From Candidatus Omnitrophota bacterium (lineage in GTDB: Bacteria > Omnitrophota > Gorgyraeia > Aquiviventales > Aquiviventaceae): DNA of 64,000 bases. Location of the stretch: positions 42,154-106,153 of the forward strand of contig JACPAY010000003.1 in the NCBI GenBank assembly GCA_016180575.1, given 5' to 3'. A program made the translations under genes and the position numbers. The first letter of the stretch is position 1, and each line of letters opens with the position of its first letter. The notes beneath the pieces are model-generated. The model saw only the letters and a program-made list of their open reading frames with translations. It searched no databases and was not told where the DNA came from. Positions 3,584 to 39,843 of this stretch are shown one piece after another.

Positions 3584-4450
<867 letters not shown>

Positions 4451-13225: not shown

Positions 13226-13765
13226 TTATTGCGGTTCCGCTTCGGCCTTAAGTTTTATGATGATCTGCTGAGCGGTTTTAATGTCCGATAATACCACTTG
13301 AGCCGGCGACATGTCAAGCACTTTGAATCCCGCAACCTCTTGTCCGACTTCAAGAAAATAGGTCTTCCCCGTGGTGGTCTCCTCCACGACGGCCCGCTGG
13401 CGCTTGCCCAAGTTGACGTGGCCCTTGTAGAGGAATTGGGGCGTGATCGGCGCGCCGGCGGCTCCGCCGGCGCTTCCGGCGGCCGGCTCGGCCTCCTCAG
13501 CGCCGACCGGACGGCGCTGCGGCGAGAAGGGGTTGGCGTTGAGGACGGCGTCCAGCCATGCCGGGTCGGCCTCCGGGATCCCCTCAGACGGCTCCGAGAC
13601 GATGGGGAACTCCTCCCGCACGCGATCCCACGGCTCGCCCGCGAGCTCGACGCGCTCCGTGCCAACGGCGGTCGCGCGCCACTGCACGATGGCGAAGGCC
13701 GCCATCGCAAGGCCCGCCGCGAGCGCCACCGGCGGCCCGGCGGAGGTGCGGTGCGTCGTCGTCAT
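13226..13765 (-). CDS. PilP/GspC-HR-like inner-membrane secretin-interacting protein
   Basis: ATG at 13765 was verified. TM segment PPVALAAGLAMAAFAIVQW, a Pro/Ala linker, and the C-terminal beta domain FLYKGHVNLGKRQRAVVEETTTGKTYFLEVGQEVAGFKVLDMSPAQVVLSD. The rest of the 388-aa track ORF is a low-complexity extension overlapping the upstream gene. Confidence 0.6.
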   Translation of the reverse strand: MTTTHRTSAGPPVALAAGLAMAAFAIVQWRATAVGTERVELAGEPWDRVREEFPIVSEPSEGIPEADPAWLDAVLNANPFSPQRRPVGAEEAEPAAGSAGGAAGAPITPQFLYKGHVNLGKRQRAVVEETTTGKTYFLEVGQEVAGFKVLDMSPAQVVLSDIKTAQQIIIKLKAEAEPQ

Positions 13766-14628: not shown

Positions 14629-16082
14629 CACGGGGCGGACTCGGGTTGCAGGGGGCGCTCCACCTGCACGCTGAAGGCGATGACCTCTTTCCCGAGTGTT
14701 TCGTCGGTGATGACGTTCGTCGAGAGCGGCTTCACCGTGGTCATGCCCGCCTGGCTCTTGAGCTGCTCCAGAAACTTCGTGACGTCCTGGAACGAGGTCG
14801 CCCGCCCCTCGAGCAGCCCTCCCAGCCCGCCGCCCTTTGAGCCGTCCAGGGCCGTCAGCCAGACCGCGCGCGGCATCGCCGCGGCGATCTGCGACAGCCA
14901 GCGCGTCAGCGCGGGGGAGTCCGCCGCGAGCTGCGCGAGCTGCAGGCTGCGTCCCTCGGTGCGCTGCTGGCGCTGGATCAGGGCGCGGATCTCGGGACGC
15001 AGCGTCTGATACAGCCGCTCCCGCTGCTCGAGCGCCCGCTGGACGCCGACGCGCCGGGCGCGCACCGTCAGCATGCCGTTGGCGCCGACGAGGACGGCAA
15101 CCGCCAGACACGCGCCTGCGGCGATCAGCGAGGCCTGGCGGATGAGCCGGGCCTGTGTTTCGCGTTGCGCGCCGTCCAGCAGGTTCAGCGGGAGGGGCGC
15201 CGCCCCCACCCCTTGCAGGGCCAGGCCCAGCGCCACCGCCATCCGATCCGGCTGCTCAACCTGCACCGTGCCGAAGCCGATGGCCTTTGTGAAATCGGCT
15301 CGCTCCACCGCCGTCCCGCCCAGCGCCTGCTGCGCCGGCGCGAGCGAGTCAGGCGGGCCCACGAGCCAGACCGGGGGGGCCGCCTCGAGGCCCTCCGCGC
15401 GCAGCGCCTGCCAGGAGGCGGTGACGTGCTCCCAGAGCGCGTCGGGCGATGGGCTGGTCACCGGGACCACCTGAAGGCGGTCGGGGCCCCAGATGCTCCA
15501 CTCCGCCTGCTGCGGCTCGATCAGCGTCAGCCAGGAGGTCGTGGCGCCGCGCGAGGGAGCAAGGAGGCTCGCCGCGTTCAGCGCCGCGACGCCGTTCACC
15601 GTCACCGCGCGCACATTGAGCCCCGCGCGGCGGCACGCGGAGAGCCGCTCATCGAGCAGCGACTGCCGCATGGCCCCTGCCACCGCCTGAGCGGGGGGCT
15701 TGAGCCACTGGTAGTGCCACGCGGCGTCGGCCAGCTCGAAGGGGAGGTGCTGCTGCAGCTCAAATTGGACGGCGAGCGCCGCCCGGCGCGGGGTGACGAT
15801 CAGCGGCTGGACCGTCGTGAGGATGGCGCTCGTGCTCGGCACGCCGAGCACCACCGGGGCGGTGACGCGCAGGCGCTGCCGCAGGTCCGCCAGCGCCCGG
15901 GTGAGCGGCTCGGCCTGCGAGGTGTCGCAGGAGGCCTCCTGCGCGGCGAGGAGCTGCAGGCGCGTTCCCGCGCGCTCCACGACCACCGCCCGGAGCGAGG
16001 AGGGGCCCAGCGCGACGCCGACCCCGACCCGCCTCGACGCGCGAGCCCGCGCCAGGAGGCCGGGGAATCCGCGGAGGGGCAT
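14628..16082 (-). CDS. PilM-PilN fusion / GspL-like assembly protein
   Basis: The N-terminal ~300 aa are actin-like (VGVGVALGPSSLRAVVVE...). These are followed by TM segment ASLIAAGACLAVAVLVGANGML and a PilN-like periplasmic domain (VWLTALDGS...GRATSFQDVTKFLEQLK). Confidence 0.7.
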   Translation of the reverse strand: MPLRGFPGLLARARASRRVGVGVALGPSSLRAVVVERAGTRLQLLAAQEASCDTSQAEPLTRALADLRQRLRVTAPVVLGVPSTSAILTTVQPLIVTPRRAALAVQFELQQHLPFELADAAWHYQWLKPPAQAVAGAMRQSLLDERLSACRRAGLNVRAVTVNGVAALNAASLLAPSRGATTSWLTLIEPQQAEWSIWGPDRLQVVPVTSPSPDALWEHVTASWQALRAEGLEAAPPVWLVGPPDSLAPAQQALGGTAVERADFTKAIGFGTVQVEQPDRMAVALGLALQGVGAAPLPLNLLDGAQRETQARLIRQASLIAAGACLAVAVLVGANGMLTVRARRVGVQRALEQRERLYQTLRPEIRALIQRQQRTEGRSLQLAQLAADSPALTRWLSQIAAAMPRAVWLTALDGSKGGGLGGLLEGRATSFQDVTKFLEQLKSQAGMTTVKPLSTNVITDETLGKEVIAFSVQVERPLQPESAP

Positions 16083-16141: not shown

Positions 16142-17698
16142 TCACTCGAGTCTCCACAACTTGATGTGGGGCCCCTTGGGGAATGAGAAGAGCGAGGGCT
16201 CAACGCCGACCACCCACGTCCGCTCCGCCGGAGACGGATCCTCCTCGTCCAGCTGGATGCCCGGCGTGCCGTTGACGTCCTTCGCGGCCTTCACCCGGAA
16301 GTAGTGGTTGCCGAGGACAAGGCCTGGGACGGCCGCGGTGGCCGTCGCGCTCCAGTCGGACCACGCGTCGTTGTCGAACGCGAACGCAAACACGCAGCCG
16401 CCCTCAGGGCAGCTGAACGTGAACGTGGCCGACGGGTCCTGGCTGAAGCCGGCGGGGCCGCTGGTGATCGTCGTCTCCGGCGACAGGAGCAGGAGATCGA
16501 TGACGTCCGAGACGGGGCTGGAGGTGTTGCCCGCCTTGTCGACGAACTTCACGTACACCCGCTGCGGGCCGCGGATGGCGGTCAGCTTCCAGAACTTCCG
16601 CAGCGCCGCGTAGGGCTCCGCCACGTAGCCGGTCGCCTCGTCGTTGCTGATGAGCATGCTGGAGAGGCCGGACGTCGCGTCGGAGGCGTCCAGCTCCAGC
16701 GTGACGTGGACGCTCGTCGTCAGGTCCGCATCGCCGTTGATGAGCACCGTCCCGGTCGGGGGCTTCGTGTCAAGGGTCACGCTCCAGACGAGGGGCGTCT
16801 GGACGTTGCCCGCGACGTCGGATGCGCGCAGCTCAAGGCTGTTGGCGCCTTCCTTCCACCCGCCGCCGGCCGCGGTGAGCGTCCCGGTCGCCGGCGCGTA
16901 GGACACGCTCGCGGCGCTGCCGTTCACCTGGAGGCTCAGCGAGGAGGCATCGACCCCGCTCGCCGCATCCGCGAGGGTCGCCGTCACATTGGCGGAGGCG
17001 TTGAGCAGGCCGCCAGCCTCCGGCGTGTGGGTGACGATCTGCGGCGGCGTCGTGTCCACCCACAGCTCAAGCGAGAGCGGCTTCCCAGCGTTGCCCGCGC
17101 TGTTGAGCGCCTTGACCGTGAAGGTGTGCACCCCATCGCTCAGCGTGTTGGGGGTGGCCGCCGCCACGTCGAACGAGGTCGAGGTCGTGTCCACGACGTC
17201 ATCCGGCGCCTGGTCCAGGCCGTAGCTGTACCCCGCCACGTCCGCCCCGGTGAGCGGCGGCTCCCAGATGAAGAGCGGATCGGCATCGGTCTGCCAGGTC
17301 TGCGGGGTGATCTTCAGCCCCAGGGCGTGGGTCTTCGCATACAGGTCGGCGAGGTCCAGATCGGTGATGGGCGGGAGCGTGGTGGCGGAGAGGCTCGCGC
17401 CGAGGAAGCCGGGGACGATCCGGAACTTGGAGCTGGAGATGGTGGCCGAGGACACGCCGTCCCCGATCGATACCTGCTGGCGGAAGTTGGACGACGTGGA
17501 CGTCCCGCCGCCCTGGTTGGTGCTGCCCGTCTCCAGCTTCTGGCTGGTCCCCTCGCTGACCGCCGCCTCCGCCATCGGCGAGGTGGCGAGAAGCGCCAGC
17601 AACCATGAAAACGCTAATGTTTGGGACAGGGGACATGGGACATGGGACAACGAGCCCGCGCGACCCCCCCGTCTCCTGTCTCCTGTCTCTTGTCTCAT
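16142..17698 (-). CDS. Secreted protein with tandem Ig-like (bacterial Ig/Big-type) domains
   Basis: Hydrophobic signal LAFSWLLALLATSPMAEA. Repeated beta-sandwich modules (DTTPPQIVTHTP..., DTKPPTGTVLING...). ATG 17698 overlaps the upstream stop (TGATG). An alternative CTG start at 17629 would skip the repeat-encoded 23 aa. Confidence 0.75.
   Translation of the reverse strand: MRQETGDRRRGGRAGSLSHVPCPLSQTLAFSWLLALLATSPMAEAAVSEGTSQKLETGSTNQGGGTSTSSNFRQQVSIGDGVSSATISSSKFRIVPGFLGASLSATTLPPITDLDLADLYAKTHALGLKITPQTWQTDADPLFIWEPPLTGADVAGYSYGLDQAPDDVVDTTSTSFDVAAATPNTLSDGVHTFTVKALNSAGNAGKPLSLELWVDTTPPQIVTHTPEAGGLLNASANVTATLADAASGVDASSLSLQVNGSAASVSYAPATGTLTAAGGGWKEGANSLELRASDVAGNVQTPLVWSVTLDTKPPTGTVLINGDADLTTSVHVTLELDASDATSGLSSMLISNDEATGYVAEPYAALRKFWKLTAIRGPQRVYVKFVDKAGNTSSPVSDVIDLLLLSPETTITSGPAGFSQDPSATFTFSCPEGGCVFAFAFDNDAWSDWSATATAAVPGLVLGNHYFRVKAAKDVNGTPGIQLDEEDPSPAERTWVVGVEPSLFSFPKGPHIKLWRLE
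17623..17698. repeat. Heptamer-based inverted repeat: (GGGACAK)n - loop CGAGCCCGCGCGA - (CCTGTCY)n; copy 1
   Basis: Read directly. It is 88% identical over 78 nt to 21762-21839. It covers the first 23 codons of the track ORF. Confidence 0.7.
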
Positions 17699-20600
17699 CA
17701 GCGTTGCACCACCGTCAGGATCCGCTGCGCGGCGCCCGGCCGGTCATCGTCCATGGCCTGGCCCACGCTCTGGACCTGGAACACATCGGACCGCGTCGTC
17801 AAGAGATGCGCCACGCGGCGGAACACCTCCAGCTTGGCCTCCTCGTCGTCCCCGAAGACCTCGCCGAGCAGCAGGTCGCCGATCCCCCGGCCTTTCTCGT
17901 CCTGGTCTCCGTAGGGGCGGCCGGCGATGAGCCGCGAAATCAGGGCATCCGTCATCTCGGGCAGCGCCCGCAGGACCTCCAGGGGAGCGGTGTTCACGTT
18001 GACCGGCCCGATGCGGACGAGCTGCGGGTCGAGCCGGATGTAATCCAGGTGGCAGATGCCGCTCGGCGAGGCGCACTCCACCTCGACGGCCAGCGCGTTG
18101 GCCGACGGCCCGGCGCCCGCGGCCCCGACCGTCACCTGGCCGACGATGAGGCGCCCCTGCGCGTTGGCCGTCAGCGCCGGCGACCAGTCGGTCAGCGTCC
18201 CATCCGCCTGCTCCCACCGAACCGCCATCTGTTCCCCGCCCCAGCCGTGCAGGCTCAAGCGGTACTGTCCGTCCAGGAGCCCCGGCCACCGCCACCGCCC
18301 CGGGACGGCCGGCTGGGCGGGGCTGCTGTGCTCGTAGTAGCCCTCCGCCTTCTCCTGCCAGGCGTCCTCGCCCGCCACAAGGCGCCCCTCGGCCTCCAGG
18401 CGCAAGCCCTCGACCGTCAACCGGTCGACGAGCCTGGCGAGATCCGCGCTCGCGAACGGCTCCCACGCCTCGCCGCTCGGCAGGCCGGCCAGCTCCCCGA
18501 CCCCCCCGAGCGGCCGGTTCACCACGGTGATCTCCTCCGCCGGATCGTGCACGATCACCTCCAACTCGATGAGCTCCTTGAGGCCGTTGTTGTCATTGGG
18601 CAGGCCGGGGGTGTAGAGCTGGAGCGATGGATACCACTCGTCATCCACCCCATCCCCATCCCCGTCCGTGCGCACGCTGGGATCTCCCTTCTCCAGGCTC
18701 TGGAAATCCGCCGTCGTCGGCGGCGGCAGCGCGTACTCCACTTCGTCCACGGTGGCCGTCCCATCCTGCAGCGTCAGGCGCGTGACGCCTCCGGCGGCCA
18801 GCGCCGCCTTCAGCCAATCGTCATCGGCCGACGGTGAACCGTCCGGGAACTCGAGCTGGACGGCGCTGGCGTCATCGGCGATGTCCCACGCCTCGCGCGC
18901 GGAGATGCCGTTGCCCCCCAAGCCGGCCGGCGCATCGTCGAGGTCAACCGCCGCGACCAGCAGGCCGTGCGCCGCGATCATGGTGCCGTCCGGCAGCCGG
19001 GCCTGGCGGCCGCCGGTCAGCTCCCCGGCGATGGTCCAACCGCCCACGTCGATGTCCTGGTCGCTGAGATTGATGAGCTCCACGTACTCCGCGTCCGGCT
19101 GCAGCGAAACGCTGACGCTCTTAAGATAGTATGTCCCGTCCGAGGCGGTTTTGCCAATAGTGAGGGTGATTTTTCCATCGGAGCCGACCAGGATGGTGGA
19201 GGGGTGGCGCTGCTCGTGGAGCAGGAGCTCGCTGTCCCCTTCGACCCGCACCTCCCCGACGGTCTGGCCCGCCGCCGAGCCGAAGACGCGCAGGTGGTAG
19301 CGGCCGGGTTCCAGCGTGGGATCGGTCCAAACCCAGCGCGCCTGCCCCACCCCGCTGTTGGTGCACACCCCCTCGCCCAAACAGGCCCAGTCGGAGCCCT
19401 GGGCGTCGAAGGTCGCCGCCGAGGCCTCAAGCGTCTTGGTCGGCTCGACCATCACCTCGTTGAAGCGAACCGCCTCGATGCCGGCCACCGTCACCCCGGC
19501 GGAGCCGGATGACTCCGAGCTGAGCTCGACGCCCCGGAAGGCGCACGCCGTGCCCGCCGGCTCCCGATTATCCACCTGGACCGTCAGCGTTCCGGTAAGC
19601 GTCAAGGTGCCCAGCAGCTCATCCGCATCGGCTGAGGGGTACAGCTCCCCCGCCACCGTCACGTCGCCCACCTTCACCCCGCCCACCCCCAGGGCGCGGA
19701 TCCGGAAGGTGCCGGACGGCACCGGCAGCACCCAGGAGAGCGGCTGCCCGCCGGGGCCGTCGCTCGCGTAATGCCCCTCCGGCTCATCGCTCCACTCCCA
19801 GGAGCCCAGGGAGCCCTGGCTCGAGATGACCAGGGTCTGGGCGGACTTCGTCACTTTGGAGAGCTCAAGGTCCGCGTCCACGTAATCCGCCATGTTGACC
19901 GCCGCCTGCCAGGGATCCGCCACGCCGGCCTCGAACAGCACCTCCAGGAGCTCCTCGGCGGTCGCGGTGTTCACGTTGATCCGCGCCGCACCGGTCACGG
20001 CGGCGTTCAGGTCCCAGCTGTAGACGGTGGCCGCGCGCGCGAGGCGGCGGATGTCCTCCGCGTCCAGGCCGGCGATGGCGGCCAGATCCTCCAGGCTCTC
20101 CAGCCGCCGGTCATCGCCCTGAGGCGCCAGCGGCTGATACTCGTCCGGCTCGTCGATGGCGCCATCCCCGTCATCATCAACGCCCGAGACGCCGGGCCGA
20201 GCGTCCTCCCCGTTTCGGTACGCCTCGATGGCTTCGGCGACGGCGGCGGCGTCGCTGATCCCCGTTTCCTGCAGGAGCGTCGTGAGGTTCAGCGCCCCCA
20301 GGCCGAGGGGCGAGGGGTCGGCCTGCCCGGCGTTCAGGTTGGCCTTGCCGGACTCATCCGCCACCAGCACGGCGTAGCGCCCGACCGTCTGCTGGCTCGC
20401 ATCGGCCACCGGCCGCCACTCGGCATCCGGCGCGTCGTCGCCGTCGACATCCACGTCGCTCCCCTGGAACGCCGTCACCCACGGTTCGGTCGCGTCGTCC
20501 ACCCGTGACGCCAGGCGGTCCTCATCGAGCAGCGCCCGGGCCACGTTGACGCCGGCTTCCGCCAGGTAGCGGGCCTGGGTCGTCGAGACGAACTGCCGCG

Positions 20601-20731
20601 TGGCCTGGGTCTCCAGGTACATGGAGAACGCGAAGGCCACGCCCATGATGCCGACCACGGTGAGGAGGCTCACGACGATGAGGAGGGCGATCCCCCGCTC
20701 TGAAAGTGCCTGGCGCTGCGCTGTCGAACAT
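17698..20731 (-). CDS. GspK-like minor pseudopilin, ~1000 aa, with large insertions including a lamin-tail-like domain; start codon unresolved
   Basis: N-terminus SERGIALLIVVSLLTVVGIMGVAFAF. GspK-type motifs: ARYLAEAGVNVARALL, VLVADESGKANLN, ARINVNTATAEELLEVL and C-terminal GPVNVNTAPLEVLRALPEMT...RSDVFQVQSVG. The insertion carries EYVELINLSDQDIDVGGWTIAG. No in-frame canonical start follows the repeat (see finding). Confidence 0.7.
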
Positions 20732-21412
20732 GTCGTCTGGCCGCGGGTGACGCGGAGCCGGGGCCCCCGCCGCCTGCCCGCAGGCCGAGGAGGCCGAGGA
20801 CAGCCGGCGGGGTGGCGGCGCGGCAGGACCCTCGAAGCGCTCGGGCCTCTGCTTGCCGACGACCAACAGGATGTCGATCGCGTTGGGCAGCTGCCCGTCG
20901 GGGCCGGTGCGGCTGCGGCCGTCCCACCGGTCGAGCCACTCGGTCCCGTCGAAATAGGACACCGTGAACTGGGACACGTCGCTGCCGCAGAGCTCGCTTG
21001 TCCCGGTCGCGTAGTCGCCGTCGGCAGGCTCATCGTCGTGGCACATGAGGTCGCCGTCGGCGGTGACCCAGTAGCCGCGCTCCACGAAGCCGGTGCGTCC
21101 CGGCAGCGTCCCCACGAAGAAGAGCTCATCGGCCGCGCTGCCCTCCTGGAGCGGCGCCTCGTCGCCGGCCCGGCGACCGATCAGGGGATAGCGGCTGCTC
21201 GCCACGGCGGAGGTCAGCTCGCGGCTGAAGAGGTCGAAGAGGAGCCGGGCCTGCTGGTAGCGCTCCGTCCGCAGCTCGCCGGTGCGCCAGGCCCGGATGA
21301 TCCCGCGGAACAGCAGGGTGGCCGACGCGCTCACGGTGATGAGGATGGCCATGGCGACGAGCAGTTCCACGAGCGTCACCCCAGAGCCGCTAGGAGGGTT
21401 CCTGCCGGACAT
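20522..21412 (-). CDS. GspJ-like minor pseudopilin (3' end uncertain: ORF reads through the repeat)
   Basis: ATG 21412 gives MSGRNPPSGSG|VTLVELLVAMAILITV, a prepilin cleavage/methylation motif. The protein-like sequence ends near ...NAIDILLVVGKQRPERFEG (~20835). Beyond that the frame is repeat-derived and then out of frame with the K-like gene. Confidence 0.6.
   Translation of the reverse strand: MSGRNPPSGSGVTLVELLVAMAILITVSASATLLFRGIIRAWRTGELRTERYQQARLLFDLFSRELTSAVASSRYPLIGRRAGDEAPLQEGSAADELFFVGTLPGRTGFVERGYWVTADGDLMCHDDEPADGDYATGTSELCGSDVSQFTVSYFDGTEWLDRWDGRSRTGPDGQLPNAIDILLVVGKQRPERFEGPAAPPPRRLSSASSACGQAAGAPAPRHPRPDDMFDSAAPGTFRAGDRPPHRREPPHRGRHHGRGLRVLHVPGDPGHAAVRLDDPGPLPGGSRRQRGPGAAR
20739..20831. 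repeat. Second copy of the 97-bp GC-rich repeat; left TIR intact, right end diverged
   Basis: GGCCGCGGGTGACGCGGAGCCGGGG...GGTGGCGGCGCGGCAGG aligns with 4352-4438. It lies at the J-like/K-like gene junction. Confidence 0.7.
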
Positions 21413-21770
21413 AGGTGAGGAACGTGAGCTCGCGCGGCCGGCCGTCCTGCACAAACCGGAGCCGGACTTCAATGGCTTTCAGGCGGCTTTTGTCCTCGAG
21501 ATCCGATGGGGCCGGCTGGCTGATGCGCGTCGTCACGTCAAACCCGTCTTCCTCCGCCGTCGTTTCCCCCTCGGTGAGCGCCTCCCAGGGCTCCAGCTTC
21601 AGCGACTCGATGGTGCGCTGCGCCACCAGGGCGGCCCGGCTGTGCCGCTCGGCGCGCAGCGAGGCCCGCAGCCCCATCGGGAACACCCGCATCGCGCCGA
21701 CGAGCCCCACCGACAGGATGGCCATGGAGATGAGCAGCTCGATGAGAGAAAACGCGGACGCTTGAGACAT
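21390..21770 (-). CDS. GspI-like minor pseudopilin
   Basis: ATG 21770 gives MSQASA|FSLIELLISMAILSVGLVGA, a prepilin motif, at GspI-like length (126 aa). A longer form from ATG 21839 would add a repeat-encoded 23-aa leader. Confidence 0.7.
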   Translation of the reverse strand: MSQASAFSLIELLISMAILSVGLVGAMRVFPMGLRASLRAERHSRAALVAQRTIESLKLEPWEALTEGETTAEEDGFDVTTRISQPAPSDLEDKSRLKAIEVRLRFVQDGRPRELTFLTYVRQEPS

Positions 21771-21839
21771 GGGACATGGGACATGGGACAACGAGCCCGC
21801 CCGACTCCCCTGTCCCCTGTCCCCTGTCTCCTGTCCCAT
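21765..21839. repeat. Heptamer-based inverted repeat, copy 2: (GGGACAT)3 - loop CGAGCCCGCCCGA - (CCCCTGT)n
   Basis: Read directly. It lies between the platform-gene stop (21844) and the prepilin start. Confidence 0.7.
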
Positions 21840-21843
21840 ACGG

Positions 21844-22914
21844 TTACCCCAGGAGTTTGGTCAGCGACATGAGTGGCAGGAACATGGCGATGACGATGAA
21901 CCCGACGACGCCGCCGACGAACACGATCAGCATCGGCTCCAGCAGCTGCGTGAGCCCGGCCAGCTGCACCTCGACCTCCTCGTCGTAGCTGTCGGCGACC
22001 TGCATCAGCATCCGGTCCAGCTGCCCGGTCTCCTCGCCCAGCGCGACCATGCGGGTGACGAGGGGCGGAAAGACGCCCGAGAGCTCCATCGGCCGCGCCA
22101 GCGACTCGCCCACCTTGAGGCTGCGCTCCACGTCCTGCAGCGCCTCATCGATGACGACGTTCATGACGGTGGCGCGGGTGGTCTCGAGGGCGCTGAGGAT
22201 GGGGACGCCGCTGGAGATGAGCGTGCCGAGGGTGCGCGCGAAGCGCGAGATGAGCAGCCGCTCCACCAGCGAGCCGATGCCCGGGGCGCGCAGGAGGGTC
22301 TGGTCGACGAGCCGCCGGCCCCGCGGGGTCTTGAGCGCCGCCCGGAGGATGGCCCAGAGCCCGGCCAGGGCGAGCAGGACGATCCACCACCAGCCGCGCA
22401 CGATGTTGCAGGCGGCGATGAGAAAGCGGGTCGGCAGGGGGAGGGCCGAGCCGAGCTCCGTGAACATCCCCAGGAAGGTGGGGACGACGAAGGCCATGAG
22501 CACGATGAGAATGCCCACGGCGACCACCATGACGAACGCGGGGTACATCAACGCGCTCTTCACCCGCTCCCGCAGGCGCGCCTGCTTCTCGAGCAGCTCC
22601 GCGAGGCGCTTGAGGATCTCATCGAGCAGCCCGCCCACCTCCCCGGCGCGGACCATGTTGACGTAGAACGGGGGGAACCACGACGGGTGGGCGGAGAGCG
22701 CCTCGGAGAACTTCACCCCGGCCTCCACGTCGGATGCGATCGCCGTGAACACCTCCCGCAGCGGGCCGGGATCGAGCTGGTCGCTGACGGTGCGCAGCGC
22801 GCGCAGCAGGGGCATGCCCGCCTTCACGAGCGTCGCCAGCTGGCGAGTGGTCAGGACGAGCTGGGGCCGCCCGGAGCGCCCCAGCCGCAATCCGGGCCTC
22901 CTGCGCGAACCCAT
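21844..22914 (-). CDS. Type II secretion / type IV pilus platform protein (GspF/PilC family)
   Basis: Two T2SF-type repeats: RQLATLVKAGMPLLRALRTV...FYVNMVRAGEVGGLLDEIL and FARTLGTLISSGVPILSALETT...LVTRMVALGEETGQLDRML. Three TM segments. ATG 22914 was chosen to avoid overlap with the upstream gene. Confidence 0.9.
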   Translation of the reverse strand: MGSRRRPGLRLGRSGRPQLVLTTRQLATLVKAGMPLLRALRTVSDQLDPGPLREVFTAIASDVEAGVKFSEALSAHPSWFPPFYVNMVRAGEVGGLLDEILKRLAELLEKQARLRERVKSALMYPAFVMVVAVGILIVLMAFVVPTFLGMFTELGSALPLPTRFLIAACNIVRGWWWIVLLALAGLWAILRAALKTPRGRRLVDQTLLRAPGIGSLVERLLISRFARTLGTLISSGVPILSALETTRATVMNVVIDEALQDVERSLKVGESLARPMELSGVFPPLVTRMVALGEETGQLDRMLMQVADSYDEEVEVQLAGLTQLLEPMLIVFVGGVVGFIVIAMFLPLMSLTKLLG

Positions 22915-22948
22915 CAGCGTGCGGGTTGCGGACCGGCGGGGAGCGGGA

Positions 22949-23890
22949 TCACCGGCCGCTCTGCACCGCGTGGTCGCCGACCTGCAGGGAACCGGCGGTC
23001 TTGGCGCCCACGATGTCACAGGCCGAGAGCTGCGGGCGAACGCGGACCGCCGTCACCCGGCCCACCCGCTGCGCGCCGCGGAGCACATCGAAGCCCATGC
23101 CGGCGCGCACCCCTTCCAGGCTGCCCTTGTCGATCACGACGAACCCGTGCGAGGCGTTCACTTCGACCAGGCGCCCGCGGACGACGGCTGATACGCCCGC
23201 CTGGTCCTTCCGGACCACGATGGGGGGCAGCTCAACGGAAGCGGCCATGCCGAACGAGGCGTTCGATGGGCGCGTCTCGGGCCCCGGCTGGGGTTGCGGC
23301 TGAGGCGCAGGGACGGCGGGGGCCTGGGGGTCGTACTGGCCGATGACGTTCACGCCGGGGTGCGAGGCCGCGATGGGGGCCGCGGGCGCCGCAAGCTTTT
23401 CCGCGAGGCGGCGGTAGTCGCGGTCGAGCAATGCCATGCGCTCCCGCAGCCGGCCCAGCGCCCGGTCCAGGACCGTCTTCTCTTCGGTCAGGCGGTCGGC
23501 CCGCTGCCGGGCCTCGTCCCGCTCCCGGATGACATCGCTGAGCCGTCCCTGCAGCTGGGCGCGCTCGTCATCCACCGTCTGGAACCGGTCCTGCAGCTCC
23601 CGGCCGCCCGCCCGCGACCGGTCCAGCTCTGCGAGGGTCGTCGTCAGCTCCGTCCGGAGCGAGACCACCCGCTGCTCCAGGCCCCGGCGCTCGTCCTGGA
23701 GGTCGGTGAGCTCGCCGGCCAGCTCCTGATTCTTCGCCTGGAGCTGGGTCGCCTGCTGCTGACTCATGGCCAGCTGCTGCTGCAGGCGGGCCATCTGCTG
23801 CCGCTGCCCGATGAAGAGGACCGCGGCGATGCCCGCCGCCACCCCCCCGATGAGCAGGAGGATGAGGAGGGCCGGCGCGCGACCCTTCAT
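22949..23890 (-). CDS. Membrane-anchored coiled-coil protein with small C-terminal beta-rich domain (paralogous architecture to 2773..3543)
   Basis: ATG 23890 gives MKGRAPALLILLLIGGVAAGIAAVLFI, then ~170 aa of coiled coil. The C-terminus reads RGRLVEVNASHGFVVIDKGSLEGVRAGMGFDVLRGAQRVGRVTAVRV. Confidence 0.65.
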   Translation of the reverse strand: MKGRAPALLILLLIGGVAAGIAAVLFIGQRQQMARLQQQLAMSQQQATQLQAKNQELAGELTDLQDERRGLEQRVVSLRTELTTTLAELDRSRAGGRELQDRFQTVDDERAQLQGRLSDVIRERDEARQRADRLTEEKTVLDRALGRLRERMALLDRDYRRLAEKLAAPAAPIAASHPGVNVIGQYDPQAPAVPAPQPQPQPGPETRPSNASFGMAASVELPPIVVRKDQAGVSAVVRGRLVEVNASHGFVVIDKGSLEGVRAGMGFDVLRGAQRVGRVTAVRVRPQLSACDIVGAKTAGSLQVGDHAVQSGR

Positions 23891-25134: not shown

Positions 25135-25163
25135 ATTCTTCAGGAGTTCAGAAAGTTTGTCAA
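25135..25163 (-). promoter_or_regulatory. Candidate sigma70-type promoter for the ROK gene (TTGACA-17-AAGAAT)
   Basis: Minus strand: TTGACA (25163..25158), a 17-nt spacer, AAGAAT (25140..25135). The predicted start site falls at or next to the ATG at 25127. Confidence 0.3.
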
Positions 25164-25169
25164 GCTGAC

Positions 25170-26549
25170 CTAAAACATCGTGATCGTGAAGCGGAGCCTT
25201 CCCCCATAGCTTCCCGCCTTCGCGTCCGGCGGAACGCGCAGCCCGCAGCTGAGGGTGAACCGGTCCGGAGAGCCCCGGCTGTCGGAGGCATACAACGGGG
25301 TGTAGCCGATTGCCAACGGGGTGTCGGGGGCCGCCATGATGGTCCCGCGCTGAGGATCGTGCAGGGTGCAGACGAGGGCATCGGCGGGCAGCTGCTCACC
25401 CGTGTCCAGCACAAGCGAGTGATCCAGGCCGACCAACACCTGATAGGGCTGCCCCAGGTTGGTGCGGATCTCCACGATGAGACGCTGCGCCTCCGGCCGT
25501 CCCGCCCCGGACTCGGTGCGGAAGCGCAGGGCTTCCCCGGCGCCGTCCGGCGAGGTGACGGTCATGGTGAACACCTCCCGCACGAGGAGCTCGACCGGCA
25601 GCAGCAGCTCGTCGCTCGATGGCACGCCCAGCTGCATGAGCCGGACCCGCAGCGTCCCGCGATAGCGTCCTGCCGGCTGCTCAGGCGGGATGGCGGCGGC
25701 GTATGCGGCACGGACCAGCCCTCCGCCCCGCTCGTCGGTCACCAAGAGCTGGGGGGTTGTTCCCAGGGGCTGCCAGGGGCTGCTGCCTTGCGGCGAGGAG
25801 ACGCTGGATGCGATCGCGTCGGGGGAGAACGTGTCGCCGCGCTCGTTCGTCAACGGCTCCGCCAGCTCCTGCGTCAACTGCGTGGGCGAGGCCGTGTTGT
25901 TAACCACGGTCACCAGGAGCTCCGCCTCCGCGGAGCGCTGGCCCGGCTCGACTTCGCCAAGCTCCAGACGGCGCGGACCGGCGCCGGACCATTCGAGCCG
26001 GACCGCCGCCGCCACCTCGGCGCGCACGGTGAGCGTCTGCGTGTCGACCGCCCCTCCGGCCGCTTCGACGCTGAAACGCACCACCCCCCGATAGGAGCCG
26101 GCGGGCAGCGCCCGATGGGCCGGGATGGCATAGGCCACGACGACGGTGTCCGAGGTCCCATTGGGATCCGACACGAACAGCTCCTGCGAGTGGGGGGCGA
26201 CCGGCAGCACGCCCCCGGCGCTGCGGGTTCCGGTGAACCCCTGGGAGAGCTGCATGACCACCGCATCGTCCGGCAGGCGGCCGCCGCGCTCATTGGTCAG
26301 CGCGTCAAACTCCTGGTAGACGCGGTAGGGCGACCCCCCGCTGCTCGCGATGGCGAGCTCCAGCTCTTCGGTTCGCGAGGGCTCACCCGGCGCGACGGTC
26401 CCGAGGTCGAGGTCCAGGCCGCCCCGCACCACCCGGACGGTCAGCGTCACGGCGGCTGATGCGGCAGGGCAGCTGACGAGCAGGCCCGCGCTGGCAGCCA
26501 TGAGCAGCGCCGCTCCGACAGCCAGATGTGGTATACTTCGAGCGGACAA
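25170..26549 (-). CDS. Lipoprotein composed of three tandem fibre-subunit-like domains
   Basis: TTG 26549 gives MSARSIPHLAVGAALLMAASAGLLVSC with lipobox LVSC (alternative start ATG 26501). Three ~140-aa repeats each end in AGSYRGVVRFSV, AGRYRGTLRVRL or AGSYGGRLRFTITMF. The domains resemble 26773..27306. The track ORF upstream of 26549 is a shadow of the plus-strand gene. Confidence 0.75.
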   Translation of the reverse strand: MSARSIPHLAVGAALLMAASAGLLVSCPAASAAVTLTVRVVRGGLDLDLGTVAPGEPSRTEELELAIASSGGSPYRVYQEFDALTNERGGRLPDDAVVMQLSQGFTGTRSAGGVLPVAPHSQELFVSDPNGTSDTVVVAYAIPAHRALPAGSYRGVVRFSVEAAGGAVDTQTLTVRAEVAAAVRLEWSGAGPRRLELGEVEPGQRSAEAELLVTVVNNTASPTQLTQELAEPLTNERGDTFSPDAIASSVSSPQGSSPWQPLGTTPQLLVTDERGGGLVRAAYAAAIPPEQPAGRYRGTLRVRLMQLGVPSSDELLLPVELLVREVFTMTVTSPDGAGEALRFRTESGAGRPEAQRLIVEIRTNLGQPYQVLVGLDHSLVLDTGEQLPADALVCTLHDPQRGTIMAAPDTPLAIGYTPLYASDSRGSPDRFTLSCGLRVPPDAKAGSYGGRLRFTITMF

Positions 26550-26661
26550 TTCGAAAGGCAAACTATTCGAAAGAATAGGGCGCAAAGCCGCGAGTCCTCC
26601 ACCGGTATCAGATACCAAAGCGCGTTCGGTATCTGATACCGGAAGGGTTGTCGGGCTGCCG
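26550..26661. promoter_or_regulatory. Conserved leader/operator module, copy in the divergent region between two fibre genes
   Basis: TTCGAAAGGCAAACT (26550-26564), CGCAAAGCCGCG (26581-26592), palindrome pair (26602-26616, 26626-26642), CTGCCG (26656-26661). The same order and spacing occur on the minus strand at 32204..32092. Confidence 0.6.
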
Positions 26662-26772
26662 GGATCGTCGGAGGATCCCGTGATGAGCTGCGTGACGCCT
26701 GCCCGCTTTCGAGGGCGGGCATCATGGCATGGAGCGGAACCGCGATGGCGCGCCCACGATCGGGAGGCCGCC

Positions 26773-32045: not shown

Positions 32046-32091
32046 CGCGCACCTCCATGGGTTTCAGCAACAAAAACGCCGGGCCGCCTTT

Positions 32092-32204
32092 CGGCAGTCC
32101 GGCTATCCTCTCCGGTATCAGATACCGAACTCGCCCCGGTATCTGATACCGGAAAGCATCCGCGACTTTGCGTCCTCACCTCACGGTGAGTTTGCCCTTT
32201 CGAA
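32092..32204 (-). promoter_or_regulatory. Conserved leader/operator module, copy upstream of the first fibre gene
   Basis: Minus strand: TTCGAAAGGGCAAACT (32204..32189), CGCAAAGTCGCG (32172..32161), palindrome pair (32152..32136, 32127..32112), CTGCCG (32097..32092). Confidence 0.6.
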
Positions 32205-32247
32205 GGTCACTAACATCAAACTTTTTAAATTTACTTCTATACCTAAT

Positions 32248-38523: not shown

Positions 38524-39843
38524 TCAGCCCCCTGATTCCGCCAGAATCTTGTTCAACCGGCCACGGGCCCCCACCGCCACCTTCCAGAACCACCCCTTCG
38601 GGTCCCAGCACTGCGCGTAGCCGAAATCGCTGACGACCCGCTCAAAGGCCTCCTTGGCCTCCCCGAACCGCTTCTGGACCATGAGCGACTCGCCGAGGAT
38701 GAAGTAGCAGGTGGCGACGTCGTTGAGCGCCCAGTTGTCGAACGCCTTCTCCTTCGGGGCGAACGCCGTCAGCGAGGCCTGCTGCTTCTTGGCCTCCTCT
38801 TCGTAGAGCTCGATGCACTTCCGCGTGTACAGCTCGACCCCTTTGTGGTCCTTCGCGTCCAGCGCCTCCCAGGCCTTGGTGGTCAGCGTCTGCGAGGTGT
38901 AGTCGCCGAAGTCGTAGCTCGTCCCCAGGGTGTTGAGCTGGTCGCCGGCGCCCTTCGCCACCTTCCAGAACCATCCCTGCGGGTCCCAGCACTGCGCGAA
39001 GGAGAACTTCTCGACGACCGTGTTGAAGGCGGATTTGGCCTCCTCGAGCTTGCCTTGGGCCGCGTGGGCCTTGCCGAGGATGAAGTAGCAGGTGGCGACG
39101 TCGTTCAGCGCCCAGGAGTCGAACGCCTTCTCCTTGGGCGCGAAGTCGGTCAGCGAGGCCTGCTGCTCGACCGCCTTGGGCTCGTAGAGCTCGATGCATT
39201 TCTTCGTGTACAGCTCGACCCCCTTGTAGTCGCCGGCGTCGAGCGCTTCCCAGGCCTTCGTCGTCAGCGTCTGCGAGGTGTAGTCGCCGAAGTCGTAGCT
39301 CGTCCCGCTGATGGCCAGCTGGTCCTTCGCCCCCTCCGCCACCTTCCAGAACCACCCCTTCGGGTCCCAGCACTGCGCGTAGCCGAGCTTGTCGATGACG
39401 GTCTGGAACGCCGCCTGCGCGTCCTTGGCCTTCCCCTGGGCCGCGGAGGCCTTCCCCAGGATGAAGTAGCAGGTGGCGACGTCGTTCAGCGCCCAGTAGT
39501 TGAACGCCTTTTCTTTCGGCGCGAAGTCGGTCAGCGAGGCCTGCTGCTCGACCGCTTTCTTTTCATAGAGCGAGATGCACTTCTTCGTGTAGGCCTCGAC
39601 CGCGGCGTAGTCCTTCGCGTCCAGCGCCTGCCAGGCCTTGGTCGCCAGCGTCTCCGAGCTGAAGTCGCCGAAGTCGTACTCGCCGGTCGTCGCCGGCGGA
39701 ACGGCCTTCGCAGCCCCTTCGGGGGCTGCCGGCTTCTGCTGGGATGGCGCCCCGCGGGCGCCGACCTCCTGCTGAGCCGAGGCGGCCGTCCCCACCCCTC
39801 CCGCCACCATCCCGACCACCATGAGCCACTGCACCGTCTTCAT
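38524..39843 (-). CDS. Secreted protein of three near-identical 127-aa TPR-like repeats (function unknown)
   Basis: Signal peptide MKTVQWLMVVGMVAGGVGTAASA. Repeats start at YDFGD[FY] (residues 56, 183, 310). Each contains WALNDVATCYFILG and AQCWDPxGWFWKVA. A strong AAGGAGG lies upstream. Confidence 0.8.
   Translation of the reverse strand: MKTVQWLMVVGMVAGGVGTAASAQQEVGARGAPSQQKPAAPEGAAKAVPPATTGEYDFGDFSSETLATKAWQALDAKDYAAVEAYTKKCISLYEKKAVEQQASLTDFAPKEKAFNYWALNDVATCYFILGKASAAQGKAKDAQAAFQTVIDKLGYAQCWDPKGWFWKVAEGAKDQLAISGTSYDFGDYTSQTLTTKAWEALDAGDYKGVELYTKKCIELYEPKAVEQQASLTDFAPKEKAFDSWALNDVATCYFILGKAHAAQGKLEEAKSAFNTVVEKFSFAQCWDPQGWFWKVAKGAGDQLNTLGTSYDFGDYTSQTLTTKAWEALDAKDHKGVELYTRKCIELYEEEAKKQQASLTAFAPKEKAFDNWALNDVATCYFILGESLMVQKRFGEAKEAFERVVSDFGYAQCWDPKGWFWKVAVGARGRLNKILAESGG
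38536..39678. repeat. 3 x 381-bp in-frame tandem DNA repeat inside the CDS
   Basis: The marker string CTTCCAGAAC recurs at 38581, 38962 and 39343, an exact 381-bp period. Confidence 0.8.

Follow-up and report, generated by a model that had tools for sequence, protein, structure and literature searches.

The window analysed here is a 64,000-nucleotide stretch of contig JACPAY010000003.1 from a Candidatus Omnitrophota bacterium, and it carries, at the 5' ends of two genes of a filament operon, the same 92-nt hairpin module built from inverted heptamer arrays. The module is best explained as a copy-prone palindromic simple-sequence element of the heptamer class known from Xanthomonas and Nostoc (short tandemly repeated repetitive sequences, STRRs), which is placed like a repetitive extragenic palindromic (REP) element and would be read out as a translated leader, with the hairpin serving as a coupling gate or as a buffer of the messenger RNA (mRNA). 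This reading as a whole is given a probability of about 0.6. Comparisons within the window and with related genomes showed the repeat class, the proximity to stop codons, the hairpin potential, the conserved openness of the reading frame, and gain, loss and replacement of the element at the level of strains. All coordinates refer to the whole 64-kb window, and the sense strand of the module and of the operon is the minus strand.

Comparison of the two copies on the minus strand showed that copy 1 (17607-17698) and copy 2 (21748-21839), each running from an ATG to GCGTTTTC, are identical at 79 of 92 nt. Over the first 26 codons of the two open reading frames (ORFs) that begin with them, 16142..17698(-) and 21390..21839(-), 69 of 78 nt are identical, and the coordinates and numbers with which a sequence-only reading had proposed a shared 5' module hold. 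The flanks of the two copies are unrelated (40 nt per side match at 12/40 and 17/40 positions). In each copy, about four G-rich heptamers (GGGACAG/GAGACAG) form the 5' array and about four (C/A)TGTCCC units the 3' array, on either side of a conserved loop that reads CGAGCCCGC(G/C)CGA on the plus strand. Tandem Repeats Finder (TRF) resolved the four arms as period-7 arrays of 3.6-4.6 units with 90-100% matches. In copy 1, the 5' arm (17671-17696) has about 3.7 units of GAGACAG and the 3' arm (17622-17649) has four units of ATGTCCC/CTGTCCC. In copy 2, the 5' arm (21806-21837) begins at the ATG with about 4.6 units of GGGACAG/GAGACAG, followed by the loop region (21791-21805, GAGTCGGGCGGGCTCG) and a 3' arm (21766-21790) with about 3.6 units of (C)ATGTCC, which holds an in-frame ATG at 21770; copy 1 has CTG at the same position. 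The heptamer-dimer pattern has five matches over the 64 kb against 0.27 expected, all of them at the two module sites. RNA folding gave for both copies a long imperfect hairpin in which 6-bp helices alternate with single mismatches, as the sequence-only reading had drawn them, with folding free energies (dG) of -50 and -56 kcal/mol for 131 nt. The 3' arms of both window copies share a systematic mismatch, ATGTCCC instead of CTGTCCC, and the A.C mismatches of copy 1 weaken its hairpin.

The nine differences within the first 26 codons are distributed 4/1/4 over the codon positions and cause five amino-acid changes, without synonymous bias. This check of synonymous against non-synonymous changes, which had been proposed with the module, gave no sign of selection on the encoded peptide in the two-copy comparison. 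The common 26 codons are one repeat read in one frame, not a conserved protein module. Searches for known elements returned nothing at the module: no Rfam 15 family reaches the gathering threshold at either copy, no tRNA or tmRNA was found, and a terminator and promoter scan called nothing at either site. The exact 21-mer of the conserved core, GGGCTCGTTGTCCCATGTCCC, has no match in 185,579 species genomes, a set that does not include the window's own genome.

The module stands at two junctions of a minus-strand operon resembling those of type II secretion systems and type IV filaments, which encodes a ROK regulator, a coiled-coil protein, a GspF/PilC-like protein, GspI/PilV-like, GspJ-like and GspK-like proteins, a 518-aa protein, a PilM-PilN fusion and further products. 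Copy 2 opens the gene of the GspI/PilV-like minor pseudopilin (pilI, 21390-21839 with the hairpin-encoded leader, identified by profiles and 192 homologues). Its ATG at 21839 lies 4 nt past the TAA (21844-21846) of the GspF/PilC-like platform gene (21844-23019; Pfam T2SSF 6e-70, NCBIfam GspF 1e-117). Copy 1 opens the gene of the 518-aa protein (16142-17698), a secreted Ig-like protein with matches to Big_13 / OmpL47-type barrel profiles. Here, the ATG at 17698 overlaps the TGA (17698-17700) of the GspK-like minor pseudopilin with an LTD insert (17698-20700, by profiles), forming TGATG. The earlier placement of these starts, including that of ATG 21770 within the 3' arm, was confirmed.

The two copies serve different kinds of leader. 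Copy 2 encodes a 29-aa leader, MGQETGDRGQGSRAGSLSHVPCPMSQASA, before F(+1) at 21752-21750, so that the long ORF reaches the prepilin motif at residue 30 (A↓FSLIELL; the arrow marks the predicted cleavage site) and the N_methyl/prepilin profile begins at residue 24-30. The features of a class III signal peptide are present, a hydrophilic net-positive leader followed by Phe+1, Glu+5 and about 20 hydrophobic residues (A↓FSLIELLISMAILSVGLVGA; N_methyl 9.5e-07, TIGR02532). Copy 1 encodes the long n-region of what is predicted from the translation and the orthologue pattern to be a complete signal peptide (17564-17698), with the h-region AFSWLLALLATSP and a putative cleavage site AEA↓AV. This is a Sec-type signal peptide rather than a prepilin leader, as AFSWLLALLATSPMAEA↓AV lacks Glu5 and has no N_methyl match, and the orthologues of the 518-aa protein show the same Sec-type h-region and A-x-A pattern. 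A translated extension that forms an unusually long prepilin leader, one of three meanings previously offered for the module, therefore fits pilI but not the 518-aa gene.

The junctions were compared with those of relatives, groundwater metagenome-assembled genomes (MAGs) named Candidatus Omnitrophota or 'Planctomycetales' that were retrieved with the GspF-like (F) protein, plus L139-L149 from protein look-ups. The F protein is 96% identical to that of the window in L126 and 82-85% identical in L127-L131, and the gene order ROK-cc330-F-pilI-J-K-Big-PilMN is kept in L126-L131, L145 and L147. The distant Planctomycetota relatives L132-L138 are uninformative for the junction, with a G-like pseudopilin after F, a normal spacer and a short leader; in L137, the GspF stop codon lies within a tandem array (~600-720) of about four 23-nt units, CCCGGTCCGTCGGAAGTAG. 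The insert at the F>pilI junction differs in every relative. It consists of (TTCGGAA)4...(CATTCCR)4 in L126, of (GTKCGGA)...(CATTCCG) in L129, of TCGTGRW / CGATTCR units in L131, of GCRATGY units in L130 and of a plain inverted repeat in L127. In L128-L131, nearly all operon junctions have inverted arrays of period 7 by TRF, with about 4.4 units, each junction having its own heptamer and each genome its own related set. The relatives carry two to nine arrays per ~20 kb, most of their inserts fold well (z from -2 to -7.7), and the stems begin 0-12 nt past the coupled ATG. One palindrome is reused in one frame at three junctions in L127, as the window reuses its module at two.

Frame analysis of these junctions showed that 19 of 21 that bear an insert have an ATG at -25 to +10 of the upstream stop, in the frame of the downstream gene, from which the frame is open to the conserved N-terminus. 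Each of the other two frames is open in only 1/21 (Fisher p=6.6e-12). The coupled ATG shares bases with the upstream stop or adjoins it (ATGA at -3, TGATG at 0), and past the insert the open frames reach the h-region of the Big signal peptide or one of the motifs (A/G)↓FSLVELL, G↓LTLVELL and ERGIALLIVVS. L139/L140, L141, L142 and L143 add five F>pilI junctions that are likewise in frame, with leaders of 31-75 aa. Some homologues are annotated from an internal Met (111 aa) or from a 3'-arm ATG (MSHVAG), and in their DNA, too, the ATG at the F stop opens the frame of the gene. The 111-aa proteins were considered as frame-shifted, phase-OFF alleles; this was rejected since the DNA is in frame and the short calls are choices of the gene caller. 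The hairpin units at K>Big of L145 (13967-14112), a more distant relative, contain stops: AGTGACT makes up the 5' arm, which is not translated, and TCACTAG the 3' arm, which is read by the Big ORF from a start within the loop. Exactly the two units in which TAG would fall in frame read TAT and TCG instead. At the level of sequence, the openness of the frame and the loss of these TAGs are signatures of translation, and the module is probably translated from the coupled ATG.

The same evidence bears on an improbable alternative in which the hairpin is a non-coding part of a short intercistronic 5' untranslated region (UTR), the long ORFs are accidental, and translation starts at ATG 21770 in pilI and at TTG 17650 or CTG 17629 in the 518-aa gene, with the start of each gene sequestered by the stem. 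ATG 21770 is in frame and would give a leader of normal length, six residues (MSQASA↓FSL), and gene callers pick this ATG or internal Mets. The GGGACAG/ATGTCCC units are free of stops in any frame, copy 2 being open in all three, and no Shine-Dalgarno sequence precedes either module ATG. However, at 19 of 21 junctions the frame that is open from an ATG at the upstream stop is the gene's own. L126, L129 and L131 have no other in-frame ATG, GTG or TTG between the hairpin and the cleavage site, copy 1 offers no ATG beyond 17698 from which a signal peptide with an n-region would result, relatives with empty sites indicate that the ATG at the stop is ancestral, and in-frame TAGs were removed from the L145 3' arm. 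A non-coding 5' UTR is not supported. For the 518-aa gene, only a start at ATG 17698 preserves the n-region of the signal peptide, TTG 17650 being poorer. For pilI, the comparisons favour ATG 21839, and ATG 21770, which arose from the C-to-A change typical of the 3'-arm units of this genome, may serve as a second start. A hairpin that sequesters ATG 21770, another of the meanings offered earlier, is the weakest of them, as this ATG exists only in the pilI copy, is replaced by CTG in the other copy and is absent from most relatives.

Empty sites were found among the relatives. At F>pilI, L144, L145 and L147 have an ATGA overlap and leaders of 4-6 aa (MIRRRA↓FSL, MRRG↓ and MSGA↓, respectively), which identifies the ATG at the stop as the ancestral start. 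L147 is empty at F>pilI, pilI>J and J>K. In L145, a hairpin of AGTGAAC/TTCACTG units occupies Big>PilMN (15541-15635), and F>pilI, pilI>J and J>K are clean. L126 retains ATG-ATT-CGC-C, after which the insert follows; the first codons are thus kept ahead of the insert, and the hairpin arose by insertion or by in-situ expansion where the leader is encoded. Of the 101 pilI homologues whose cleavage site is recognisable, 35 have leaders of at most 11 aa and 60 have leaders of 18-49 aa, of which 56 are net positive. The families of long leaders are plain translations of heptamer hairpins (FGIRNSEFGI...FHSAFRIPHSA; AQGSRLKAQG...LQPSAFSLQPSA; QQATSDKQ...CHVACRMSHVA; and others). Even where the mature pilins are at least 90% identical, the leaders are unrelated or absent. 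As judged from these comparisons, position and architecture are kept and the sequence is fully replaced, even between strains.

Such turnover raises the question of whether the hairpin does anything. In a rather unlikely extreme, the module is a selfish or neutral passenger only, a palindromic simple-sequence repeat (SSR) that spreads and expands by its own dynamics and survives where it is harmless (cleaved leaders, n-regions, loops and spacers), with no effect on expression. This would account for an element that is present, absent or replaced among pilins at least 90% identical, for the empty operon junctions of L147 and L145, and for families that are specific to a genome and reused at several of its junctions. 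It would also account for an in-frame hairpin of (CGGGGCT)3.9...(CAGCCCC)3.9 inside the PilM-PilN fusion of L128 (17198-17274), at a length-variable loop at which L131 has a different insertion. The substitutions between the window copies are not compensatory, and the palindromic elements of Rickettsia are a precedent (PMC10969869). However, the K>Big junction carries some hairpin in 8/8 genomes examined, each of unrelated sequence; the metagenome matches listed are strongly biased towards positions 0-15 nt from stop codons; and a 30-bp stem beside a start codon would be unlikely to spare initiation. The less extreme proposition that the hairpin is a tolerated passenger has close to an even chance of being right, and a selected regulatory effect is proposed only tentatively, with the odds somewhat against it.

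A scan of JGI metagenome contigs with the pattern GACAGGRGACAG-N(10-40)-TGTCCCMTGTCCC (two G-rich units, a gap of 10-40 nt and two C-rich units) placed the module in a wider class. At least 120 contigs were matched, with at least 116 distinct (GGGGACA)n-loop-(TGTCCCC)n hairpins with variable loops in DNA of 54-76% GC. The modal number of units per arm is four among the hairpins listed. The 3' end of a gene, as predicted by a crude caller based on GC content at third codon positions (GC3), lies within -10 to +15 nt of the hairpin edge in 50% of those listed, compared with 2.2% of random segments. At least 14 of the hairpins lie between convergent genes. Heptamers of this kind are said to have been described by Mazel and colleagues in 1990, the STRRs of cyanobacteria being the original example of the class. 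Rehm et al. 2015 (PMC4692102) described the heptamers GGGAATC in Xanthomonas and GGGGA(C/T)T in Nostoc, with a preference for four units and 70-75 convergent pairs per Xanthomonas genome that are potential stem-loops. In that study, the repeats also occur between co-oriented ORFs, at most 50 bp from a stop codon, with an under-representation in coding DNA; their role was left open. The module shares with this class the 7-nt units in head-to-tail tandem, the arrays of about four (3.6-4.6 in the window and about 4.4 in the relatives, which fits the four-unit preference), the close convergent pairs able to form a stem-loop and the proximity to stop codons, and its unit GGGGACA is G-rich and one base apart from the Nostoc unit GGGGACT. 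In contrast to that class, the window arrays lie inside ORFs, in frame, within leaders and signal peptides, not in non-coding DNA, and the heptamers of this clade are site-specific and many are not G-rich. A literature search for the literal repeat strings returned no relevant paper.

G-quadruplexes were proposed for the GGGAATC/GGGGAYT repeats, and similar heptamers form them in vitro (Rehm et al. 2015, PMC4692102). It is hardly credible that the window module acts in this way, as a DNA-level element in which the G-rich arm of the sense strand forms a quadruplex comparable with that of Neisseria pilin variation. The sense-strand 5' arms do have at least four GGG/GGGG tracts, and four units are preferred. 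However, the complementary arm would compete, and the relatives' heptamers TTCGGAA, GCGACAT, ATTTACG, GCTCAAG and AGTGACT cannot form a quadruplex and yet have the same architecture and the same four-unit preference. Since most heptamers of the relatives are not G-rich, a quadruplex cannot be the general principle. Two further candidates were rejected. Sites of the CsrA type (GGA) in the 5' arms are missing from many relatives, whose heptamers have no GGA, and an integron attC-like element is contradicted by the gene order, which is fixed across genomes, and by the lack of R'/R'' core sites.

REP elements occur in many copies in enterobacteria and pseudomonads and stabilise upstream mRNA. Those within ~15 nt of a stop codon reportedly affect translation of the upstream gene, a finding attributed to Liang, Rudd and Deutscher in 2015. 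The module resembles them as an imperfect palindrome just 3' of a stop codon, including between cistrons of an operon, and in forming species-specific sequence families. It differs in being 92 nt long, SSR-built and intragenic, whereas REP elements are 20-40 nt, extragenic, marked by a conserved 5' tetranucleotide and linked to REP-associated tyrosine transposases (RAYTs). The suggestion of a REP-like insertion was also supported, as a widespread class of stop-adjacent heptamer palindromes that is gained, lost and swapped among close strains. It had been offered as an alternative to a translated extension, so that many non-coding copies would make the module a plain repeat and proteomic starts at the distal ATGs would make it a coding leader; this was a false choice, for the two hold together and both can be true.

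The closest behavioural parallel is with the Rickettsia palindromic elements (RPEs), which are palindromic, in frame, free of stops and translated within the host protein (PMC10969869; Ogata et al. 2000). Like RPEs and intragenic elements similar to miniature inverted-repeat transposable elements, the inserts described here are in frame and stop-free, occupy permissive positions and differ between close relatives. RPEs, in contrast, are ~100-150 bp long, are not SSR-based, encode a conserved peptide per family and sit in mature parts of housekeeping proteins, whereas the favoured site here is the cleaved leader or n-region at a coupled junction and the peptide is not conserved. The module behaves like an RPE and is not filed as a member. 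Alignment of filled and empty sites showed no evident target-site duplication. The TAACTGA repeats of Beggiatoaceae, cyanobacteria and Bacteroidetes, direct heptamers just upstream of start codons (MacGregor 2015, PMC4679880), are similar in forming arrays of 2-6 units a few nucleotides from start codons, for which post-transcriptional action is suspected. They differ in being one fixed, direct heptamer that contains a stop, is therefore untranslated and forms no hairpin. The in-frame translation of palindromic repeats and the inverted heptamer pairs near stop codons are thus already known. No prior description was found of systematic in-frame hairpins in cleaved prepilin leaders or Sec n-regions at coupled junctions with complete sequence turnover.

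Tandem heptamers within ORFs of surface-structure genes also suggest a contingency locus, in which gain or loss of 7-nt units by slippage would turn the pilin genes on or off, as in Neisseria opa, with CTCTT repeats in the signal-peptide coding region. Further precedents are the leader-peptide GCAGA repeats plus stem-loop of S. gallolyticus pil1 (PMC3894217) and the 7-nt repeats of H. influenzae hmw (PMC12721329). As in such systems, the unit is not a multiple of three and occupies the leader or 5' end of genes for surface structures, sometimes with an RNA hairpin. Leader length varies among near-identical homologues, with a difference of 7 aa (21 nt, three units) in cluster 7. However, no out-of-frame allele was found; 13/13 independent F>pilI junctions read as DNA are in frame, those truncated by gene callers included. 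The four assemblies of the window's population are identical, the arrays are inverted pairs of about four units for which low slippage rates are expected, and the same elements occur in non-surface genes and between convergent genes. Phase variation is thus not supported and is considered very improbable. Nor is there support for an intrinsic terminator or attenuator, in which the hairpin and a following UUUUC (GCG TTT TC) would cause partial termination between cistrons, the least probable of the explanations considered. TTTT(C) follows the stem in both window copies and in L126, L127 and L128, and the rare Phe codon TTT is used in a genome of 70% GC. However, the terminator scan called neither site, the run has only four T, lies in copy 2 up to 12 nt past the stem and is part of the codons for the pilin's obligatory Phe+1-Ser+2, and the hairpins at the J and K junctions have no T-run.

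In the preferred reading, a copy-prone heptamer palindrome translated as a leader, the cistrons of the operon would be translationally coupled, with the next start overlapping or adjoining the stop before it (as ATGA or TGATG, or 4 nt past TAA). Once inserted behind such a stop, an element is part of the next ORF, located between its first codon or codons and the cleavage region, and only stop-free in-frame copies would persist there. Translation from the coupled ATG, 21839 in the GspI/PilV-like gene and 17698 in the 518-aa Ig-like gene, would add a hydrophilic, net-positive N-terminal extension, to be removed by prepilin peptidase (A↓FSLIELL) or by signal peptidase I (AEA↓AV). With the sequence of the leader peptide irrelevant, turnover would be unchecked. 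In the mRNA, an imperfect hairpin of ~30 bp would form at the start codon or at most ~12 nt from it and hinder de novo initiation by 30S subunits, so that the downstream cistron would be made mainly by ribosomes terminating upstream. Such a coupling gate would serve proteins that assemble stoichiometrically, and the hairpin could also, in the manner of REP elements, buffer the upstream mRNA segment against 3' exonucleases.

Several observations weigh against this reading. The stability of the hairpins exceeds that of shuffled sequences only modestly (z from -1.1 to -1.8 for copy 1 and from -2.4 to -3.3 for copy 2), the 9-13 substitutions between the two copies are not compensatory and covariation, from two copies only, lends the structure no support. 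Some period-7 arrays of the relatives do not form hairpins (L129 pilI>J and L131 J>K). The empty sites of close strains show that the hairpin is dispensable at F>pilI, which weakens a regulatory interpretation in particular. The ancestral ATGA has been lost in the window, where the F gene ends in GGG TAA and the ATG follows 5 nt further on. ATG 21770 with its normal 6-aa leader is preferred by gene callers on Logan contigs, and an exact-protein look-up found no record of the 149-aa pilI ORF, only the 126-aa call from ATG 21770, on short Logan contigs only. Gly at -1 has been called critical for prepilins, whose leaders are usually 6-26 aa (PMC4471445); the -1 residue of pilI is Ala in the window and in 54/101 homologues, and leaders of 29 aa in the window and up to 75 aa in relatives exceed this range. 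The module has only two copies within the 64-kb window, and neither a transposase nor any other means of spread was found for it, although RAYTs were not looked for.

A bolder version of the reading, which is regarded as doubtful, takes the cleavable leader and signal-peptide regions as dedicated landing pads for fast-evolving heptamer hairpins that are selected as coupling valves or as slow contingency switches. The strength of the stem, given by unit number and periodic mismatches, would then set the I:J:K:tip-protein stoichiometry, and the peptide would be discarded. Such hairpins, if this is true, would amount to a novel kind of cis-regulatory simple-sequence element within coding sequence. 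If the hairpins are passengers, they would be a clean case outside Rickettsia of palindromic selfish DNA inside coding sequence. The comparisons imply a tolerance of prepilin leaders of 29-75 aa and of very long Sec n-regions, wider than the usual limits of class III leaders, and point to the cleaved leader as the place where tightly coupled operons permit the insertion of repeats. Gene callers truncate such genes at internal Mets or at ATGs within the hairpin, so that pilin leaders and signal peptides are mis-annotated in the clade. The same junctions with different heptamers, with non-heptamer palindromes or empty, in near-identical backgrounds, form a natural experiment in which coupling, mRNA stability and slippage are testable.

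A second family of GC-rich palindromes (GGCCGCGGG...CCCGCGGCC), unrelated to the heptamer module, has copies at 4352-4445 and 20739-20834 of ~95 nt that are 93-98% identical, with dG of about -65 to -71 kcal/mol. The copy at 20739-20834 (minus strand) lies in the leader-coding region of the GspK-like gene and has the same role at the J>K junction as the heptamer module elsewhere in the operon. In L128 and L142, a GC-rich palindrome of this family fills the F>pilI leader. The copy at 4352-4445 lies between BioF-like and BioD-like genes and is open in frame from TGA-ATG into BioD. It had been considered as an out-of-frame negative control in front of a cytoplasmic BioD-like protein and was rejected, as it is also open in frame. 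At ~20835, between 20834 and 20840, the window lacks ~45 nt (AGCGTCATCTATGTCCCCACCAGCTAAAACGTGCGCTGGGCCGCG) that are present in Logan contigs from the same population (L002/L004) and hold the GspJ-like stop and the overlapping GspK-like ATG (MSPPAK...). Owing to this gap, the J ORF of the window extends to 20522 and K is left without an ATG. Either a deletion in this strain or a misassembly at the repeat could explain the gap; Logan contigs of the same population end within the GC-rich repeat.

Other features of the window lie outside the module. The only strong sigma-70-like promoter matches in 13-26 kb are at 25135-25163(-), just upstream of the ROK gene (TTGACA-17-AAGAAT), and at 13288-13317(-), upstream of a 574-aa coiled-coil gene (TTGACA-18-TATTAT). 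The position of the former suggests that the pilus operon is transcribed from the ROK promoter. The only Rfam matches of the window are two c-di-GMP-I riboswitch aptamers at 26547-26663(+) and 32089-32205(-) (RF01051, 57 bits; RF03167, 59.3 bits), which face outward from a segment of ~5.5 kb and precede genes for secreted proteins beside the pilus operon. Each aptamer holds the palindrome CCGGTATCAGATACC...GGTATCTGATACCGG, which was also found as inverted repeat I1. Three tandem copies of a 381-nt unit, 75-81% identical, occupy 38567-39682 and probably encode a repeated protein domain. Paralogous segments are found at 7807-8034/9324-9551 and at 8199-8424/9704-9929.

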